In this document: in pieces, positions 5,386 through 63,989 of the stretch
Numbering within the stretch: the first letter of the stretch is position 1
Layout: each line of letters opens with the position of its first letter
Source of the DNA: an uncultured delta proteobacterium
GTDB taxonomy: Bacteria > Desulfobacterota > DSM-4660 > Desulfatiglandales > HGW-15
DNA length: 64,000 bases
Direction: 5' to 3'
Assembly (NCBI GenBank): GCA_963707125.1
Contig: CAVPOU010000013.1
Location: 64,007 to 128,006 of the forward strand
The notes under the pieces: generated by a model
What the model was told of the DNA's origin: nothing
Seen by the model: the letters and a program-made list of their open reading frames with translations, nothing else
The model's database searches: none
Program-made: the position numbers and the translations under genes

Positions 5386-5515
5386 CTCTTTGCGAAGAAG
5401 TTCAGAAGCGAACCGCAGAATGTCGAATAATGAATAAAGAAGGCCGAAGGAGACAATGGAAGTCATTAAACTTCGTCATTCGAAATTCCTTGTTCGACAT
5501 TCGATATTCATTCAG
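5386..5515. repeat. REP-A element, copy 2
   Basis: Near-identical ends to 2985-3150. It overlaps the artificial N-terminal extension of the track ORF that starts at 5430. Confidence 0.8.
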
Positions 5516-5600
5516 TGCAAAAGATACCAATGGCCCACTGATACAGGTTGGTTTTGGTCAAGGGCCTGCGTTGGGGAGATTGCAGGGAGGATTGCCATCC

Positions 5601-6869
5601 ATGTTTCTTGGCCCTGATGATGTGAACATGGTTCTTGATGAGGGTATCTACGAGAAGATCTCGGCTCTTCCGGCCTATGAAGAAGCCGATGAGGTCATGA
5701 TTCATTACACGGTGACCCAGGAATGCCCGTTTAACTGCAGGGGGTGCATCAATGCGCTCACGGCGGGCAAAGGGAACAGCGGCCGCTCGGACTTCTTCCC
5801 TGACGCAAGCAAGGGTCAGAATCTTGAAAGAGACCTCCTAGGGATTGCCGGGTTGATCAAGAACAGCGGCAAGAAGAGAGCGGTGATTGTCTATTACGGG
5901 GGTGAGCCCATGCTCCGGCTCGACCCTATGAACCATCTCTACCGGACGCTGCCCGGAATCCTGGGAGACTCCACGTCCCTCAAGCACATGGTCATCACAA
6001 GCGGGCACTTTCTGGAAAAAGCGATCAAGAAGAGCCCTGAGCTGGTCTCCAGCATGTGGCTCACGGCCCTTTCGATTGACGGAAATGAAGAGCAGCATGA
6101 TGCCATGCGCAGGGGGACGTCTCTCAGCAAAATCAGGCGCCAGGTGAAAGCCTTGAATCATGTGCGGCAGGGTGAAGTGCTCATCTGGGCGACCCTGCGA
6201 CCTGAGATGTCTCTGTGGGATTGTTTCGACTCCTTCATGTATTTTCGGAAACGCGCGGAGGCGGAGCACTTTTTCTGGCACTGCGATGAAGGCGACGGAA
6301 TGATTCCTGATTTGCCAGGATACCTGGAGAGATATCGCCGGGATCTGGAGAGAATCATGGAAAGCTATGTCGAGCACATGAGCCGGGGGGATCTCCTGTC
6401 GCTCATCCACGTGAACGATCTCCTCCTTTATCTGTTCACTCGAAAGAGGCGAGGAACCACAGCCTGCGCAGTCGAAAGAATGGAGAATTTCGACATCATC
6501 GGCGATGGAAAAGTTCACGCCTGTGCGGACCTGCCTGAAGCCATGAGCATCGGACGCATACTGGAATCGGGTGAGATTGTCTTTGAAGCGGATGCGAGGG
6601 AAAGACTGGGGAAAATCGTGAGCTACAAAACAGACCTTGGGTGCAGCACCTGCGGGGTTGAGCCTTACTGCGGGGGAAGGTGCCCTGTGCAGGCCAACAC
6701 AGGCGGTATAGGACGGGCGCGGCAGTACTGCTTCATGATGCGGGAATACGTGAAGACGGTCAAAACGCATGCGGGTCAAATCGCGAACCTCATGGTTGAA
6801 AAGGGGATTACTCCTGGAGATCTCTACCGCTCCGCCCACCTCACGAAGTTCGCCGATGTGACGCCGTAA
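5601..6869 (+). CDS. radical SAM enzyme with a full SPASM domain
   Basis: The CX3CX2C motif is CPFNCRGC. YGGEPML follows. The SPASM cysteines read CAVERMENFDIIGDGKVHAC ... CSTCGVEPYCGGRC ... QYC. GGGAGGA lies upstream of the ATG at 5601. Confidence 0.8.
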   Translation: MFLGPDDVNMVLDEGIYEKISALPAYEEADEVMIHYTVTQECPFNCRGCINALTAGKGNSGRSDFFPDASKGQNLERDLLGIAGLIKNSGKKRAVIVYYGGEPMLRLDPMNHLYRTLPGILGDSTSLKHMVITSGHFLEKAIKKSPELVSSMWLTALSIDGNEEQHDAMRRGTSLSKIRRQVKALNHVRQGEVLIWATLRPEMSLWDCFDSFMYFRKRAEAEHFFWHCDEGDGMIPDLPGYLERYRRDLERIMESYVEHMSRGDLLSLIHVNDLLLYLFTRKRRGTTACAVERMENFDIIGDGKVHACADLPEAMSIGRILESGEIVFEADARERLGKIVSYKTDLGCSTCGVEPYCGGRCPVQANTGGIGRARQYCFMMREYVKTVKTHAGQIANLMVEKGITPGDLYRSAHLTKFADVTP

Positions 6870-45527: not shown

Positions 45528-47015
45528 TTAGGATTCCTTGACGCGGTTCAATTTGCAGATTTTGCGGAAATGATGGCCGTAAATCGCAAAGGTAACCGTC
45601 AGAGAAAACAAACGGGGCCGGTGAAAAAAAGTCCACAACAAGAGCTTCCAGTATTGGAATCGCTCTCTGCCGAGAATACCAAGGCGGATGATTGAACGGA
45701 AGAATCCCACCAGACGGTGAAAATCCATGGGGGTTCTAATCTCCGGCGTTTTGTACTCTCGAAGAAAGGTCATGGCTCGCTTGTAGTAAGGTTTGGGCGA
45801 GTAGATGTGCTGCATGATGCTTCTGTATCCGTCGCGCAGCGCAGCATTGCCCATCTTGGAAAGGATGTTGGTTGTGCCGTCCACGTTGTCTCCGGAGAGG
45901 AGGCCGATCAAGCGGCCCTCCCTTCTCATGCGGTCATAGAGTCTGGTGCCGGGAGGAGCGTTCAGCAGGCCAACCATGGCCGTCACGATTCCGCTTTTTT
46001 GGATAAACTCGATCTGCCGCTGAAAGATGGAAGGGGTGTCGCTGTCGAACCCTATAATGAAGCCTCCTTGCACTTGCAGCCCGGCCCGCTGCATGAGCTT
46101 CACACTCTCGATCAGGTCCCGGTTCTTGTTCTGCTGCTTGTTGCACTCAGCGAGGCTTTCTTCATTGGGCGTTTCAATGCCTATGAAGACCGAGTCAAAA
46201 CCGGCCTTGGCCATCATCTCCATGAGCGGCTGGTCGTCGGCCAGATTGACCGATGCCTCTGTGTTGAAGGGAATTCCTTTCTTGCCTTCTTGCCACTGAA
46301 TCAGGGCGGGCAGAAGATGGGCCTTGAGATAGGCTTTGTTCCCGATGAAGTTGTCATCCACGAAAAACACAGGACTGCGCCAGCCCAGATTGTAAAGCCC
46401 GTCCAGTTCCACAATAATCTGTTCAGCGGTTTTGGTGCGCGACCGATGCCCGAACAGTGCCGTCACGTTGCAGAAATCACAGTTGAACGGGCAACCGCGG
46501 GAGAACTGGAGGCTCATGGAGGCATAGTGTTTTAAGTCCATCAGCTCCCACATAGGAGCAGGTGTTTTTTGAATATCGCAAAAATCGGATGTCTCGTAGA
46601 GGTGCTTAGCGCAGCCCTTCTCCAGATCCTCCAGAAATGGAGGAAGGGTCAGTTCGGCTTCATTCAGCACAAAATGGTCCACCTCTCCAAACTGATCGTG
46701 CTCGCTGGTGAAGAGCGGCCCTCCTGCAATGATTTTTAGACCGGCGCTTTTGCACCGGGCAATGATTTCACGCGCCGATTCTCTTTGCACGACCATCGCG
46801 CTGATGAAGGCGCAATCCGCCCAGGCCAGGTCTTTTTCCGTGAGCTTTGCCACATTCAAGTCCACTAACTTCTTCGGCCATGCTTTGGGGAGCATCGACC
46901 CGATGGTCAGCAGCCCCAGCGGCGGGAAGGCCGCTTTCTTGTGAATGAATTTCAGCGCGTGCTTAAAGCTCCAGAAGGTATCCGGATATTGAGGATAAAT
47001 CAGCAGGGTTCGCAT
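45528..47015 (-). CDS. B12-binding-domain radical SAM protein (class B, DUF4070-type C-terminus)
   Basis: The N-terminal cobalamin-binding-like fold begins MRTLLIYPQ... The radical SAM motif is RGCPFNCDFCNV. Confidence 0.85.
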   Translation of the reverse strand: MRTLLIYPQYPDTFWSFKHALKFIHKKAAFPPLGLLTIGSMLPKAWPKKLVDLNVAKLTEKDLAWADCAFISAMVVQRESAREIIARCKSAGLKIIAGGPLFTSEHDQFGEVDHFVLNEAELTLPPFLEDLEKGCAKHLYETSDFCDIQKTPAPMWELMDLKHYASMSLQFSRGCPFNCDFCNVTALFGHRSRTKTAEQIIVELDGLYNLGWRSPVFFVDDNFIGNKAYLKAHLLPALIQWQEGKKGIPFNTEASVNLADDQPLMEMMAKAGFDSVFIGIETPNEESLAECNKQQNKNRDLIESVKLMQRAGLQVQGGFIIGFDSDTPSIFQRQIEFIQKSGIVTAMVGLLNAPPGTRLYDRMRREGRLIGLLSGDNVDGTTNILSKMGNAALRDGYRSIMQHIYSPKPYYKRAMTFLREYKTPEIRTPMDFHRLVGFFRSIIRLGILGRERFQYWKLLLWTFFHRPRLFSLTVTFAIYGHHFRKICKLNRVKES

Positions 47016-47216
47016 CGACTTCCTTTCCTCTAATCCTCTCAAGTGTTGCAAATGTCCTTTTGATTTTTTTATCAAAGTTGGAGGATGGTGATCATCGAGC
47101 AGGAATTGGATGACCGAGTTCAGATTCTTTTCTTTTTATCGGGAACCAGAAGGGATGCAATGGTTGAAGAGTGGCATGACCTTTATGCAACGCCGACCGT
47201 TCCAAAATTCTAATTA

Positions 47217-52099: not shown

Positions 52100-53374
52100 T
52101 TAGCTGATAGGGGTCGACTTCCCCATGCAACATTTCTTGTACTTCCTGCCGCTGCCGCAGGGGCACGGGGCGTTACGACTTATTCTGGGATGAGGCTGGG
52201 TCTGCATGGCAGGGCGAGGAGGCACTTGCCCTTCGATGCTCTCCCTGTGCCGTAGGGCGGACAGTTCTGCAAGAAAAGGCTGGCAGTGGGTAAAAAAGCG
52301 TTTGTAGCCCGCACACAAATAGTTCAGCCCTGCTTCGCCATCGGGGGTCCGGAGAATGCGATCCTTCGGGCACCCTCCGTTACAGAGAGGGAGGACCTCA
52401 CATTCCAGGCAATACCGGGGTAAGGTGTCCCATTTGACTTGGCCGAATGCCCTCTGCCTCGGACCTTCGATGAGATCGACCAGCCGGGTCTCACGGATAT
52501 TCCCCAAGTGGTGTTCTTTGTGGACGAAGTGATCACAGGCAAAAAAATCTCCATTGTGTTCGATCACGGGAACATCACCGCAGCTTTTCTTAAAGATACA
52601 CAGTGTATGCTCCTGCCCCAAGGCTGTTCTGGCCGCCTCCTCGAAGATCTGGACTTTTATCTGCCCGATATCCTGACTCGTCCACTCATCGAAGATGGCG
52701 CAGAGAAAAGCGCCAAAGGCCTCAGAGGGGACGGTGCAAGAGCTTACAGTTCCATCGATGTCCGGCCGGGGCTCTACCAAAGGTAAGAAACCCATGTATG
52801 TGGCTTTGATCTGCTTAAAGAACCGGTAAACCTCGGCGGGGTGGTGGACATTGTGCGCGTGTACCACGCACAGGATATCGCATGGGATTCGGTGCTTACG
52901 CAGGAGTTCGTAACCGCTCATTGCCTGGCTGTGGGTGGGTTTCCGCCCTTGGTAAGGCGATGGCTGTCATGCATTTCCTGCGGACCGTCCAGGCTGATCC
53001 CCACGGCCAAATCCTTCTGCAGCTAAAAACCGGCACCAGTCCTCATCGATGAGGGTGCCATTGGTTTGAATCCCGTTGATGATCTGACGGTGAGAGGGCT
53101 GATGCTTGCGCTGCAATTCAACGATCTTGTGAAAGTAATCCAATCCGAGCAGGGTCGGCTCCCCGCCGTGCCAGGAAAAAGGGATTACCGGATCGGGGGA
53201 GGTTTCAATGTGCTGAAGGATGTATTCTTCCAGGATATCGTCGGGCATGCGAAAGGAGTTTTCATCAGGATAGAGGCTTTGTTTTTTCAGGTAGTAACAG
53301 TAGTCACAACTGAGGTTACAAATGGAGCCAATGGGTTTAGCAAAAATTTGATAGGGGCGGGAGGCCTTGGCCAT
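52100..53374 (-). pseudogene. anaerobic sulfatase-maturating-enzyme-like radical SAM/SPASM gene with a SEC-C tail, disrupted by two frameshifts
   Basis: The N-terminal ORF carries CNLSCDYCYY and GGEPTL. The expected LAVGISLDGPQEMHDSHR is in a second frame and KPTHSQAMSGYELL... in a third. The C-terminus reads NAPCPCGSGRKYKKCC. Confidence 0.7.
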
Positions 53375-53396
53375 GGTGTGATCTCCCTCTATGCCG

Positions 53397-54074
53397 CTAG
53401 ACCTTGCTCTGAAAAAGCTTTTCTTTCAAAACCAGACATGCAGCCACAAAAACCACAAAGTCGACAGCAACCGTCAGGAAGATAAAGATAAGGCCCGCAA
53501 AGGCAGATGACGCAGGCATTTGTGATTCTGCGCCAGTATGCCCCATGAAAGAACCTAGGGCGATGGAGAGCATCGAAAGAACGACCAGGGGCAAACTGAA
53601 CTGGAAATTTCCAATCAGACACTTAATCCCAAGCGGTATGCAAGAAAATCTCTCTCCTGTGAGAAACACAAGGGGGATGACATAGATGCTCAAAATATTG
53701 ATCAATCCGTACACGAGTTCAGTAACGGTGCCGGCCGCCAACCCGGAAGAATAACTGATCAGAAGCCAGATGAACAAGGGAGCATGCAAGACGATGCTCA
53801 CTGAAATGAAATTCCACCAGTGCTGACGTAAAAGCTGTCCCCAAGGCACAGGACCTTGGCCAGTGATGATTTCAGTAAATCGCCCATACATTAAAGGATA
53901 TATAATCAAGGTTGCGAGAACAGAACCTAAAGTCAATATCCCGCCAAAGCCCTCTGGAAAAAGAACCGACAAATAGGAGGCACCGATGACTAGATAGGGC
54001 ACAATAAGTAAAGCAGCATTTGATTTGATGAGATTTATTGCTTGAACAATGTGTGGCCGTATGGACTGATCCAT
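53397..54074 (-). CDS. polytopic membrane protein, unknown function
   Basis: About 6 hydrophobic helices. Confidence 0.45.
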   Translation of the reverse strand: MDQSIRPHIVQAINLIKSNAALLIVPYLVIGASYLSVLFPEGFGGILTLGSVLATLIIYPLMYGRFTEIITGQGPVPWGQLLRQHWWNFISVSIVLHAPLFIWLLISYSSGLAAGTVTELVYGLINILSIYVIPLVFLTGERFSCIPLGIKCLIGNFQFSLPLVVLSMLSIALGSFMGHTGAESQMPASSAFAGLIFIFLTVAVDFVVFVAACLVLKEKLFQSKV

Positions 54075-54147
54075 TTACTATAACCTTTCAAGAATGAGCT
54101 GATCGATAACCGCCGACCGCTTATCTCTTCCCCTCTTTCCCTTCTTT

Positions 54148-54489
54148 TTAGCTTTCCAGTTCCTCCAGCACCTTAAAAACAAACCGGATAGGCCATTGAG
54201 CCGGACCGCCATTCAAGGCAAGGGCAACTGCCGCTGTTTCCAGGATCTCCTCCCGGCTGGCTCCAAGGTCAGCAGCACTGCTGACATGGAATTCAATTCA
54301 GCCATAACACTTTTGCGTGATACTGATTCCCAGAGCAACGAGCTCTTTGTATTTCCGAGACAAGGCGCCGTCTTTCAAGGCATCGGCTTCCAGATCTTCA
54401 AATTTACGAAAGGTGCTGATCCCGCTGCGAAACATAGCTTGATTGTACTTCTTGCGGGTTTTTCTTATTTCACTGATCTCATCGAACAT
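54148..54489 (-). CDS. AhpD/carboxymuconolactone-decarboxylase-family protein with an in-frame UGA (probable selenocysteine, C-x-x-U)
   Basis: The track ORF stops at TGA 54298-54300 right after ..ITQKCYG. The same frame continues as IEFHVSSAADLGASREEILETAAVALALNGGPAQWP.. to a TAA at 54148. The TGA sits where the family's second CxxC cysteine is expected. AGGAGA RBS. Confidence 0.7.
54268..54285 (-). promoter_or_regulatory. candidate bacterial SECIS hairpin
   Basis: GUCAGCAGUGCUGCUGAC (7-8 bp stem, G/U-containing apical loop) starts 12 nt after the UGA. Confidence 0.5.
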
Positions 54490-54891
54490 CGCTTTCTCCT
54501 AGATAGAATTTGGTTTTGATAGGGTGGACTATACGGAATAGCCGCTCGTGTGTCAAGGTAAGGGACGGGCGTTTACCCATTTCTTTGCACCCCCTTTGCC
54601 AAGACTTTGTGAGATACCTTCCGAGGAGCCGCCTCCATATCCGCAGCAAACGGAAAAAACATAAAGCAGCCAAGGCGGAGAGGTACCCCGAACAAAAGAA
54701 ATACCAAAGGGAGAAAGACGGCGATCAAAGTGCCGGCCAGGATCAGGAAGGAAACCCGCTCACCTCCGCCCTGCTCCCCGAAAACTGGTCCGGATGTTGT
54801 GATAGTTTTCAGGCATAATCGGGGCCGCGGATGAAGAAGACAGGTGTGAGTCGAAGGCGGTTAAGGGTAGAGAGGATGATCAGGATGTTGC

Positions 54892-54935
54892 GGGAGGAGG
54901 TGAAAGGGTTATGACTTGACAACACCAAGAAACCC
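54892..54935. repeat. 44 bp inverted repeat, left copy
   Basis: gggaggaggtgaaagggttatgacttgacaacaccaagaaaccc matches the reverse complement of 57958-58001 at 42 of 44 positions. Confidence 0.85.
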
Positions 54936-54972: not shown

Positions 54973-55275
54973 TCATGCGATGGCCAACGCATGGACCTCT
55001 CGCGCCAGCCGGTCTCCTATTCGATCCTCCTCTCGGGCAAGTTCAAAGTGGCTTTGAAGATTAAGCCAGAATTGAGGGGCCATGCCAAAGTAACGTCCGA
55101 GACGCAACGCGGTGTCCGCCGTGATGCACCTGTCGCCATGAACAATTTCGTTGATGCGGCGGGCAGGGACGCTGATATCCTTCGCCAGGCGATACTGCGA
55201 AATGCCCATAGGCTTGAGGAACTCCTCCAAGAGAACCTCGCCGGGGTGGATGGGAGATATCTTTCTCTTGTTCAT
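54973..55275 (-). CDS. higA: HigA-family antitoxin (XRE HTH)
   Basis: IHPGEVLLEEFLKPMGISQYRLAKDISVPARRINEIVHG.R.ITADTALRLGRYFG..PQFWLNLQ. Confidence 0.85.
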   Translation of the reverse strand: MNKRKISPIHPGEVLLEEFLKPMGISQYRLAKDISVPARRINEIVHGDRCITADTALRLGRYFGMAPQFWLNLQSHFELAREEDRIGDRLAREVHALAIA

Positions 55276-55285
55276 GTTTCTGCTC

Positions 55286-55501
55286 CTAATGATAGTCTAC
55301 GATCTCCACGTCATAGGCATTCCCATCTTGCCACCGAAAGCAGATGCGCCATTGATCGTTAATCCGGATGCAGTGTTGTCCTAATCTGTTCCCACTCAGT
55401 GCTTCCAACCGATTCCCCGGGGGCACCCGTAGTGCGGTGAGATCGGGAGCCGCATCAATCATCCAGAGCTTGCGCTCAAAGTGCTGGTTGCGATTACCCA
55501 A
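55286..55501 (-). CDS. higB: HigB-family toxin, apparently N-terminally shortened
   Basis: LRVPPGNRLEALSGNRLGQHCIRINDQWRICFRW. It has a TTG start immediately after the neighbouring gene, and about 20 N-terminal residues of typical HigB are missing. Confidence 0.65.
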   Translation of the reverse strand: MGNRNQHFERKLWMIDAAPDLTALRVPPGNRLEALSGNRLGQHCIRINDQWRICFRWQDGNAYDVEIVDYH

Positions 55502-62627: not shown

Positions 62628-62804
62628 GGAAGACGGCGCCTAAAGTGAGCACGATGCTAAGGCCCACGGTTAAAGACCCTAAGACGCCAGAAGGATAGGA
62701 GAGCGATGGGTAATACAAGGGAGCTAAAGGAGTTCTTTCGATCGATGATGCATTATCCGATGCACCGTGCTCCGTGCGCCGTGCTACAGGTGTTAGTGTC
62801 TAAA

Positions 62805-63146
62805 ATGCATGAAATGTCCATTGCCCAGAGCCTGATCACCATCGTCCAGGAGGAGATGGCAAGAAACGGCGCGAAAGCGCTCAGGTCGGTGCGCCTGAGT
62901 ATCGGGGAGATGTCCGCCATTGTGCCGGAGTCTCTGTCCTTTTGTTTTGAGATTATCATCGAGGGAACTCCTCTTGAAGGGGCGAGACTCATCATGGACA
63001 GGATTCCTCTCAAAGGATACTGCCCGGACTGTGAACGGCCGTTCCCTATCAAGGAGTTTGTTTTCGTTTGCCCGACCTGCGGCAGCACAAATGTGGAAAC
63101 GATTGAGGGACAGGAGCTGTCGATCGTCGAGATGGAGGTGGAGTGA
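62805..63146 (+). CDS. hypA: hydrogenase nickel-incorporation protein HypA
   Basis: MHEMSIAQSL is present, with the zinc site CPDC...CPTCGS. Confidence 0.85.
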   Translation: MHEMSIAQSLITIVQEEMARNGAKALRSVRLSIGEMSAIVPESLSFCFEIIIEGTPLEGARLIMDRIPLKGYCPDCERPFPIKEFVFVCPTCGSTNVETIEGQELSIVEMEVE

Positions 63147-63149
63147 GAA

Positions 63150-63290
63150 AAAGAGAGAAGACAGGAGACAGAATACAGAAGACAGTAGTAAAACCAGTGA
63201 ACGGTGAGCAGTGGGCAGTTAGGAAGACAGAAGACAGTAGGAAAAGCGAGGAACGGTGAACGGTCAACAGTGAACGGTGAACCGTGAACG
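63150..63290. repeat. degenerate short tandem motifs (agaagacag / gtgaacggt)
   Basis: Repeated gacag.ag and (g)gtgaacg(g) units lie between hypA and hypB. Confidence 0.55.
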
Positions 63291-63308
63291 ATTTGGCGGA
63301 GGTTTTTC

Positions 63309-63989
63309 ATGAAAGTTTCGGTGGTGAGAAATATCCTGGAGGCGAACGAGCGGATCGCTGAACAAAACAAGGCTTTGTTTCAAGAACATCACCTGCTGGT
63401 CATCAATCTCATGAGCTCTCCGGGTGCTGGAAAAACCAGCCTTCTGGAAAAAACGATTGATGCCCTGAAAAAGGATCTCCGAATCGGAGTGATCGAAGGA
63501 GATATCCAGTCCACGAGCGACGCCGAGCGCATTGCCCGGAAGGGAGTTCCCGCGGTGCAGATCAACACGGGAGGGGCATGCCATCTGGACGGGAACATGA
63601 TCCGGGAGACCTTTCAAGAGTTCGATTTCAGCCGATTGGATCTCCTGGTGGTCGAGAACGTCGGAAACCTTGTTTGTCCTGCGGAGTTCAACGTAGGAGA
63701 GGACTTTAAGGTCATGATCTTAAGCGTTGCGGAGGGGGATGACAAACCGTCCAAGTACCCTCTCATGTTTCACGAGTCGAAAGTGCTCCTGGTCAACAAA
63801 ATAGATCTCCTTCCCTATGTGGATTGCAGCGTGGAGAAAATCATTAAGGACTCTTTGAACATCAATCCGGAGTTGGCCATCTTCCAGGTCTCTTGCAAGA
63901 CCGGGGAAGGCCTTGAAGACTGGTACCGGTGGTTGCGTGAGAGAGTGAAGGAGAAATCGCGGAGCTTCAGAGAGGGATGCCACGGTTGA
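63309..63989 (+). CDS. hypB: hydrogenase nickel-incorporation GTPase HypB
   Basis: The P-loop is SSPGAGKTSLL. ENVGNLVCP and NKIDL are also present. Confidence 0.9.
   Translation: MKVSVVRNILEANERIAEQNKALFQEHHLLVINLMSSPGAGKTSLLEKTIDALKKDLRIGVIEGDIQSTSDAERIARKGVPAVQINTGGACHLDGNMIRETFQEFDFSRLDLLVVENVGNLVCPAEFNVGEDFKVMILSVAEGDDKPSKYPLMFHESKVLLVNKIDLLPYVDCSVEKIIKDSLNINPELAIFQVSCKTGEGLEDWYRWLRERVKEKSRSFREGCHG

Follow-up and report, generated by a model that had tools for sequence, protein, structure and literature searches.

A single intact gene on the minus strand of the window (the whole 64,000-nucleotide stretch of DNA from an uncultured delta proteobacterium, contig CAVPOU010000013.1), lying at 54489..54148, very probably encodes a selenoprotein in which UGA at codon 64 is decoded as selenocysteine (Sec) under the direction of a selenocysteine insertion sequence (SECIS). 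The protein is a 113-residue, all-helical member of the carboxymuconolactone decarboxylase (CMD)/AhpD-like superfamily. Its UGA lies at the second redox Cys of the CxxC motif of the family, the frame beyond it is maintained as coding sequence in related genes, and a hairpin directly downstream is kept where codon 64 is UGA and is not formed where that codon specifies Cys.

Structure of the gene

Direct reading and translation show that the frame starts with ATG at 54489 (minus strand) as MFDEISEIRKTRKKYNQAMFRSGISTFRKFEDLEADALKDGALSRKYKELVALGISITQKCYG and reaches a TGA at 54300-54298. The 63-residue minus-strand open reading frame (ORF) so defined, 54489..54298, has the C-terminus ...LVALGISITQKCYG, immediately followed by that TGA. 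Past the UGA the same frame continues as IEFHVSSAADLGASREEILETAAVALALNGGPAQWPIRFVFKVLEELES up to a TAA at 54150-54148, reading ...QKCYG-UGA-IEFH... across the junction, for a total of 113 sense codons (UGA included), 49 of which lie downstream of the UGA. A spacer of 12 nucleotides, AUUGAAUUCCAU (54297-54286), separates the UGA from a hairpin at 54285-54268, with the hairpin loop beginning 19 nucleotides after the UGA. A preliminary description of this DNA, made from the letters alone, had proposed a 63-residue ORF stopping at TGA 54298-54300, a frame continuing for 49 residues to TAA, and a perfect hairpin 12 nucleotides after the UGA; the frames are exact to the base, and the hairpin was found as described, with a 7-bp stem and a 4-nucleotide loop. 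The features of the gene are as follows.

54148..54489, minus strand: full coding sequence of the predicted CMD/AhpD-like selenoprotein, 113 codons including UGA-64, plus the TAA stop (from translation, domain and homologue matches)
54298..54300, minus strand: in-frame UGA, codon 64, putative selenocysteine at the second position of C61-Y-G-U64 (from alignment with Cys homologues and from TGA/TGY loci)
54343..54345, minus strand: Glu49 codon, proposed proton-relay glutamate 12 residues before Cys61 (invariant in the alignment of Cys homologues; role suggested by homology)
54307..54309, minus strand: Cys61 codon, first residue of CxxU and proposed resolving thiol (invariant)
54286..54288, minus strand: His68 codon (U64+4), putative proton-relay histidine (invariant; homologous to PA0269 His55 and M. 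tuberculosis AhpD His137)
54268..54285, minus strand: candidate SECIS core hairpin GUCAGCA-GUGC-UGCUGAC, a perfect 7-bp stem with a 4-nucleotide loop starting G-U
54261..54291, minus strand: extended SECIS, predicted in the window and in the related locus L001, with a weaker lower stem (UUCCA/UGGAG) and a bulged U
54496..54500, minus strand: Shine-Dalgarno sequence AGGAG, 6 nucleotides before the ATG (direct sequence reading)
54528..54556, minus strand: promoter-like site TTGACA-17 nucleotides-TATAGT upstream of the gene (11 of 12 consensus matches; probable function)

The promoter-like site is the only one of its kind in 53300-54900, and locus L001 keeps the hexamers with equal spacing.

Homology and the position of the UGA

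In profile searches run with Cys substituted for the UGA, Pfam CMD (PF02627) matched residues 27-99, across the UGA (5e-18; 65.3 bits versus a cut-off of 23), and NCBIfam TIGR00778 (ahpD_dom) matched at 49 bits (cut-off 27.8). The best sequence matches among solved structures were Legionella lpg0406 (5dik, 4e-16), RclX (7y4r) and Thermotoga TM1620 (1vke/1p8c). In every structure alignment the UGA coincides with the second Cys of CxxC; thus the query QKCYG[U]IEFH pairs with QCPGCIGFH (5dik) and TRCDGCIGVH (7y4r).

A database search returned about 40 full-length Cys homologues of 115-130 residues, most of them 55-72% identical to the window protein; an identity of 55-71% holds over 99-100% of the length. 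In an alignment of 23 full-length Cys homologues residues C61, C64, E49, E66 and H68 are invariant. The earlier suggestion that the UGA stands at the second redox Cys (C-Y-G-U) is therefore borne out both by these homologues, where it aligns with the invariant C64, and by the PDB matches. Among the hits of the same search were about 45 clusters of roughly 63-residue proteins, all ending ...CYG, which are orthologues cut by gene callers at the same codon.

The structure model was made for the closest Cys homologue. This AlphaFold model (pLDDT 93) gives TM scores of 0.86-0.90 to TM1620 and lpg0406 and TMq values of only 0.42 to M. tuberculosis AhpD (1gu9) and 0.50 to 2ijc; the high scores to the former pair and the low score to M. 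tuberculosis AhpD place the protein in the group of small CMD proteins typified by TM1620 and lpg0406. Its manner of working may be AhpD-like, but it is no AhpD orthologue.

Comparative evidence for recoding

Related loci comprise 80 from a metagenome scan and one genome locus (L001, from a metagenome-assembled genome, MAG). Codon 64 is TGA in 53 of these loci and TGC or TGT in 28, and the codon-64 column is invariant within the Sec set. The 42 distinct Sec-type genes align without gaps and have no further stop in the 49 downstream codons; amino-acid identity between pairs of them averages 0.73 in the part ahead of the UGA and 0.79 in the part beyond. Codon-position entropy, for positions 1 and 2 versus position 3, is 0.43 and 1.13 upstream and 0.36 and 1.19 downstream (40 genes). 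The entropy and identity values together indicate that the downstream part is under the same protein-level purifying selection as the upstream part, and a loss of conservation beyond the UGA in orthologues, which had been raised at the outset as a possible objection, is not seen in the 42 genes (identity of 0.79 vs. 0.73, no stops).

These data bear directly on whether the UGA might be a true stop, in which case the gene would be either a pseudogene or a truncated CMD gene with a 63-residue product, and what similarity remains downstream would be a relic. Such a stop would agree with the 63-residue entries given by gene callers and GenBank, with the standing of TGA as the commonest stop codon in the window, and with the lack of visible Sec machinery there (tRNA scan; ten large ORFs). 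A relic, however, would gather stops, frameshifts and non-synonymous changes, whereas in 42 distinct orthologues, with identities as low as about 60%, neither a stop nor a gap interrupts the 49 downstream codons, and the downstream part is better conserved than the upstream part with a coding-type substitution pattern. The 63-residue product, moreover, would have only three of the five helices and neither His68 nor the second catalytic residue. Termination at codon 64 is thus very improbable. Elsewhere in the window TGA is an ordinary terminator, ending 23 of the 47 genes; a genome-wide reassignment of UGA (codes 4/25) was rejected on this count, and the recoding proposed here must therefore be local and site-specific.

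It could also be supposed that a TGY Cys codon was misread or misassembled as TGA, especially as the nearby radical SAM gene contains likely indel errors or mutations. In the contig collection 49 blocks index the exact 63-residue product. Four contigs of the same organism were examined, three of them from separate ENA assemblies and one from a JGI metagenome, and every one has the identical TGA and hairpin; recurrence across separate assemblies excludes a sequencing artefact. The TGA and hairpin are also carried by the MAG locus L001 (90% nucleotide identity, with 96% also given for the locus) and by about 50 more distant loci. Error at this codon can hardly be entertained, and it is the least probable of the alternatives to selenocysteine decoding.

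In a neighbor-joining tree of 62 forms (a crude tree, without support values) the Sec and Cys forms are interleaved, with the Sec-type loci L034, L063 and L070 branching among Cys clades, which suggests several independent switches between Sec and Cys.

The hairpin and its conservation

The 7-bp core hairpin is extended in the window by a lower stem of 5 bp (54291-54287 with 54265-54261), which becomes a 4-bp version when another stretch is folded; in orthologues this lower stem is only partly conserved: of 31 sequences, 20 form pair 13-36 and 28 form pair 14-35. Folding of 54305-54240 gives -26.7 kcal/mol (z = -2.5, with 5 of 200 shuffles equally stable), so that folding energy alone is only modestly unusual. 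The hairpin is nevertheless more than a chance occurrence, because the same TGA, frame and hairpin recur in 53 independent metagenomic loci. In all Sec-type sequences it lies at a constant distance from the UGA, while Cys-type sequences encode other residues at this place (VTAAL or VTAAM, not VSSAAD) and do not form it.

Constraint on the hairpin is visible at the nucleotide level. Third-position entropy, which is 1.13 and 1.19 in the two flanks, drops to 0.36 in the six hairpin codons; in the Cys forms it is 0.83. In the six core pairs, 17 of 19 departures keep pairing (G-C to G-U or C-G to U-G), and the other two break the terminal pair. A criterion set for bacterial SECIS elements (PMC13188914) comprises a loop of 3-9 nucleotides, a stem of 4-16 bp, a G in the first two loop positions, a UGA-loop spacing of 16-37 nucleotides and a minimum free energy of -7.5 kcal/mol or lower; this consensus is satisfied by 31 of 31 distinct Sec-type sequences, the window hairpin having the loop GUGC, 7 bp, a spacing of 19 nucleotides and -14.7 kcal/mol (45 nucleotides from the UGA). 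The hairpin had been put forward from the start as a bacterial SECIS, and its fixed distance in Sec forms, its absence from Cys forms and its agreement with the consensus uphold that assignment.

The nearest Cys form, P0001 (loci L092-L095; TGT at codon 64; 71% identical), provides a natural control. About 190-240 nucleotides into the gene it retains GTCAGCA GTGC, the 5' arm and loop, followed by a 3' arm degenerated to TATGAAT. It looks like a recent replacement of Sec by Cys; with the UGA lost, the structural constraint is lost too.

These observations also bear on the proposal that the hairpin is conserved merely through the peptide VSSAAD, with no RNA structure needed. The stem does lie in coding sequence beside the active site, and it shows no compensatory covariation, as would be expected on that proposal. 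Conservation of the peptide would not account, though, for the four-fold degenerate third positions of the stem (GUC, GCU, GCU), which are nearly invariant, or change only from C to U opposite G, whereas third positions in the flanks vary freely. Nor would it account for the Cys-type homologues, which encode VTAAL or VTAAM there and lack the hairpin, for the TGT form, which retains VSSA and shows a decayed 3' arm, or for the tolerated change of Ala73 to Val (GCU to GUU), which is non-synonymous and keeps a G-U pair. An explanation from the peptide by itself is therefore improbable to about the same high degree as a true stop.

Proposed mechanism and function

In the proposed mechanism the hairpin at 54285-54268 would serve as the SECIS, with its G/U-containing apical loop positioned 19 nucleotides downstream of the UGA. 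With the UGA in the ribosomal A site, the hairpin would recruit the SelB.GTP.Sec-tRNA(Sec) complex, which would outcompete RF2. In the product, C61-Y-G-U64 would form the redox centre, and the AhpD proton-relay positions would be taken by Glu49 and His68. In PA0269 the relay residues are Glu36/Cys48/Cys51/His55 and in M. tuberculosis AhpD they are Glu118/Cys130/Cys133/His137 (PMC3141380); the spacing of E49, C61, U64 and H68 equals that in both of these proteins. According to a passage in PMC6626918 that cites Bryk 2002 and Koshkin 2004, the second Cys of M. tuberculosis AhpD (Cys133) is exposed and forms a mixed disulfide with AhpC. Selenocysteine in the window protein would sit exactly at the Cys133-equivalent position, as is usual for selenoenzymes.

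Placement of Sec at the attacking-Cys position, together with the AhpD relay spacing, is the reason for proposing a selenol/thiol oxidoreductase cycle, which appears to be the most likely activity. The cycle would begin with attack of the Sec64 selenolate on a peroxide directly or on an oxidised partner, either a disulfide or a peroxiredoxin-type sulfenate. Cys61 would then resolve the adduct to give an intramolecular selenenylsulfide, and an external reductant would restore the protein.

Observations that weigh against the proposal

A number of observations count against selenocysteine decoding, or against the function just outlined, and are best considered together. ARAGORN detected neither selC nor any other tRNA in the 64-kb window (nor a tRNA-Sec or any other tRNA in 24 related loci), and an NCBIfam scan of the ten largest plausible window ORFs, which encode a D-Cys desulfhydrase-family enzyme, radical SAM proteins, a caspase-like protein, hydrolases, NifS and an amidase, found no SelA, SelB or SelD. 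The 64 kb contain no second convincing selenoprotein gene; there are 122 mechanical candidates for ORF pairs split by a single TGA, and on inspection of the flanking translations none besides the gene at 54489..54148 resembles a split gene, the radical SAM gene described below excepted. A search of the whole window against Rfam, with gathering thresholds, returned no SECIS or other relevant RNA family, and a search of 54100-54560 with E up to 10 gave no match either. Compensatory double substitutions in the stem amount to 0 pairs, and shuffle controls are not exceeded. As to function, the equivalent of M. tuberculosis AhpD His132 is Gly63 in the window protein, no peroxiredoxin, AhpC or Redoxin domain occurs among the called genes of the surrounding 20 kb or so in the related loci L088-L091, and the gene arrangement is common only to the close relatives L001 and L088-L091.

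The weight of these points differs. Genes for Sec insertion need no linkage to their targets, and so the lack of sel genes in the window neither supports nor refutes selenocysteine. Rfam models of bacterial SECIS elements are lineage- or gene-specific, and for that reason the Rfam result says little. Support for the stem comes from its conservation, from wobble-only changes and from its linkage to the UGA; covariation is not claimed. With no AhpC neighbour, and a gene order that is kept by close relatives alone, the context gives no firm clue to the substrate.

The same lack of sel genes in the window (tRNA scan; ten large ORFs) leaves room for read-through of a different kind, in which the hairpin stimulates decoding of the UGA but Cys, Trp or another near-cognate amino acid is inserted; downstream hairpins are able to stimulate read-through in general, and the identity of the residue at codon 64 is here deduced from sequence. 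Against near-cognate insertion, the only codons that take the place of the UGA at this invariant redox position specify Cys, a pattern that marks Sec/Cys pairs, and the hairpin fits the SelB-type SECIS consensus in its spacing and loop G. The family, moreover, is already catalogued as CxxU selenoproteins (PMC1088965, PMC13188914), and the named orthologues come from MAGs of Deltaproteobacteria, the bacterial group with the richest selenoproteomes (PMC1794560). Near-cognate read-through is thus improbable, if somewhat less so than the other alternatives, and SelB-dependent insertion of selenocysteine appears to be the best account of the gene.

Gene neighbourhood and other features of the window

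Downstream on the same strand, 73 nucleotides away, lies the gene for a 225-residue predicted membrane protein (53397-54074, minus strand) with no Pfam or NCBIfam match. Only close relatives keep it beside the selenoprotein gene (the L001 copy is 71% identical), and the two may be co-transcribed. Further downstream is an anaerobic sulfatase-maturase-type radical SAM/SPASM/SEC-C gene (52100-53374, minus strand), for which the intact orthologue matches TIGR03942 at 441 bits and is 424 residues long in L088, L090 and L091. The window copy is split into ORFs of 135 and 273 residues by compensating frameshifts, +1 nucleotide near 53013 and -1 nucleotide in a G run near 52944, which garble 23 codons. 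An in-frame TGA in this gene was considered as a Sec codon and rejected, as it is a product of the two frameshifts. The lesion is either an assembly error or specific to the strain.

Upstream, genes for a HigB-like toxin (71 residues) and an HTH_3 antitoxin (100 residues) at 54973-55501 (minus strand) lie directly upstream of the promoter-like site of the selenoprotein gene, and an alpha/beta hydrolase is also encoded upstream. A marine and saline-sediment clade (L009-L036 and relatives) has another context, absent from the window: an SDR-type dehydrogenase gene upstream and a gene for a 522-residue AMP-dependent acyl-CoA synthetase downstream (22 loci), with flanks that span +350 to +1930 and -1200 to -300 from the UGA. 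The Cys form P0001 is followed immediately by a gene for a C_GCAxxG_C_C family protein (PF09719). Among the compared loci no universal neighbour emerged as a functional clue.

Two other radical SAM genes occur in the window, for a 479-residue SPASM-domain protein (5430-6869, plus strand) and a 515-residue B12-binding protein (45528-47075, minus strand), and hypA and hypB are located at 62706-63989.

Consequences for annotation

Deposited orthologues of 63 residues (GenBank MCX5877775.1, MBW2004585.1 and OGP64777.1) all end at the Sec codon, and thus the gene is indeed annotated as truncated, as had been foreseen for this copy. Their records carry the names "carboxymuconolactone decarboxylase family protein" or "hypothetical protein", with "YurZ" used at JGI. 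The main value of the present analysis is practical, in that the locus should be annotated as one selenoprotein gene of 113 codons (with a transl_except at 54300-54298) and not as a 63-residue fragment, and the same correction is due for about 45 protein clusters of orthologues in public collections. The 53 Sec loci and 28 Cys loci, together with the TGT form and its half-decayed SECIS, also offer a clean natural example of constraint on synonymous sites that is released on replacement by Cys. The finding opens no new question in selenium biology.

Comparison with known systems

AhpD/CMD selenoproteins with a CxxU motif were described in 2005 from the Sargasso Sea metagenome, as an "AhpD-like protein" and a "CMD domain-containing protein" (PMC1088965). 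"AhpD-like 2" (pfam02627, CxxU) is represented by 70 sequences in GOS data and is more abundant in non-marine samples (PMC2398784), and a 2026 review (PMC13188914) lists the CxxU CMD/AhpD-like family, as does BSepDB (PMC13326102). That AhpD-like selenoproteins were already on record, as the preliminary description had stated, is evident from these sources. The window protein resembles the CMD-like/"AhpD-like 2" family in its PF02627 domain, in the location of Sec on the second Cys (CxxU), in the SECIS hairpin directly downstream and in its many Cys homologues; its likeness to published representatives (e.g., MBW1767730.1) is one of description and does not imply a shared subclade.

With TM1620 (1p8c, 1vke) and lpg0406 (5dik), proteins described as "possibly involved in antioxidative response", it shares size, the all-helical fold and the CxxCxxxH motif residue for residue; unlike it, they carry Cys at the position of the UGA/Sec, and identity is about 30-40%. 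M. tuberculosis AhpD (1gu9) and PA0269 have the same Glu...Cys-x-x-Cys-x3-His proton-relay motif on a helix-turn-helix (PMC3141380) but differ in topology and size, in having His132 or Tyr50 at the position of Gly63, and in that the window gene has no ahpC neighbour. The hairpin is like the bacterial SECIS consensus (the Zhang and Gladyshev model as given in PMC13188914, with E. coli fdhF as prototype) in being a stem-loop within the coding sequence immediately 3' of the UGA, and is unlike known SECIS elements in having no match to an Rfam SECIS family.

Local similarity in the AhpD core extends to several NCBIfam families, some of which also have CxxU: NF041047 (the GSU3128 family), NF041238 (AhpD_rel_CFYUT), NF041537 (ArsM/AhpD), NF045649 (MduS) and TIGR04169. 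The scores of the window protein are far below the curated cut-offs of all these AhpD-type selenoprotein models (28.5 vs. 110 for NF041047, 12.1 vs. 175 for NF041238, 51.5 vs. 510 for NF041537, 41.4 vs. 380 for NF045649, 37.4 vs. 120 for TIGR04169), and judging from these scores it is not a member of any of the five. Because the clade of about 113 residues (MF..RKKYN..CYGU-IE[YF]H..WPARFVFKVLEEL) scores under the cut-off of every curated NCBIfam AhpD-type selenoprotein model, an uncurated subclade is possible. It is conceivable, though rather unlikely, that these CYGU-IE[YF]H proteins make up a distinct, uncurated TM1620/lpg0406-type subfamily of sediment, soil and freshwater Desulfobacterota, marked by an unusually invariant SECIS, by repeated switches from Sec to Cys that leave decaying remnants, and possibly, in the lineage of the window, by co-transcription with the membrane-protein and radical SAM genes; if true, such co-transcription would point away from peroxiredoxin recycling and towards some different redox role. 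On every testable criterion, the window protein fits the known CMD/AhpD CxxU family, a kind of selenoprotein known since 2005.

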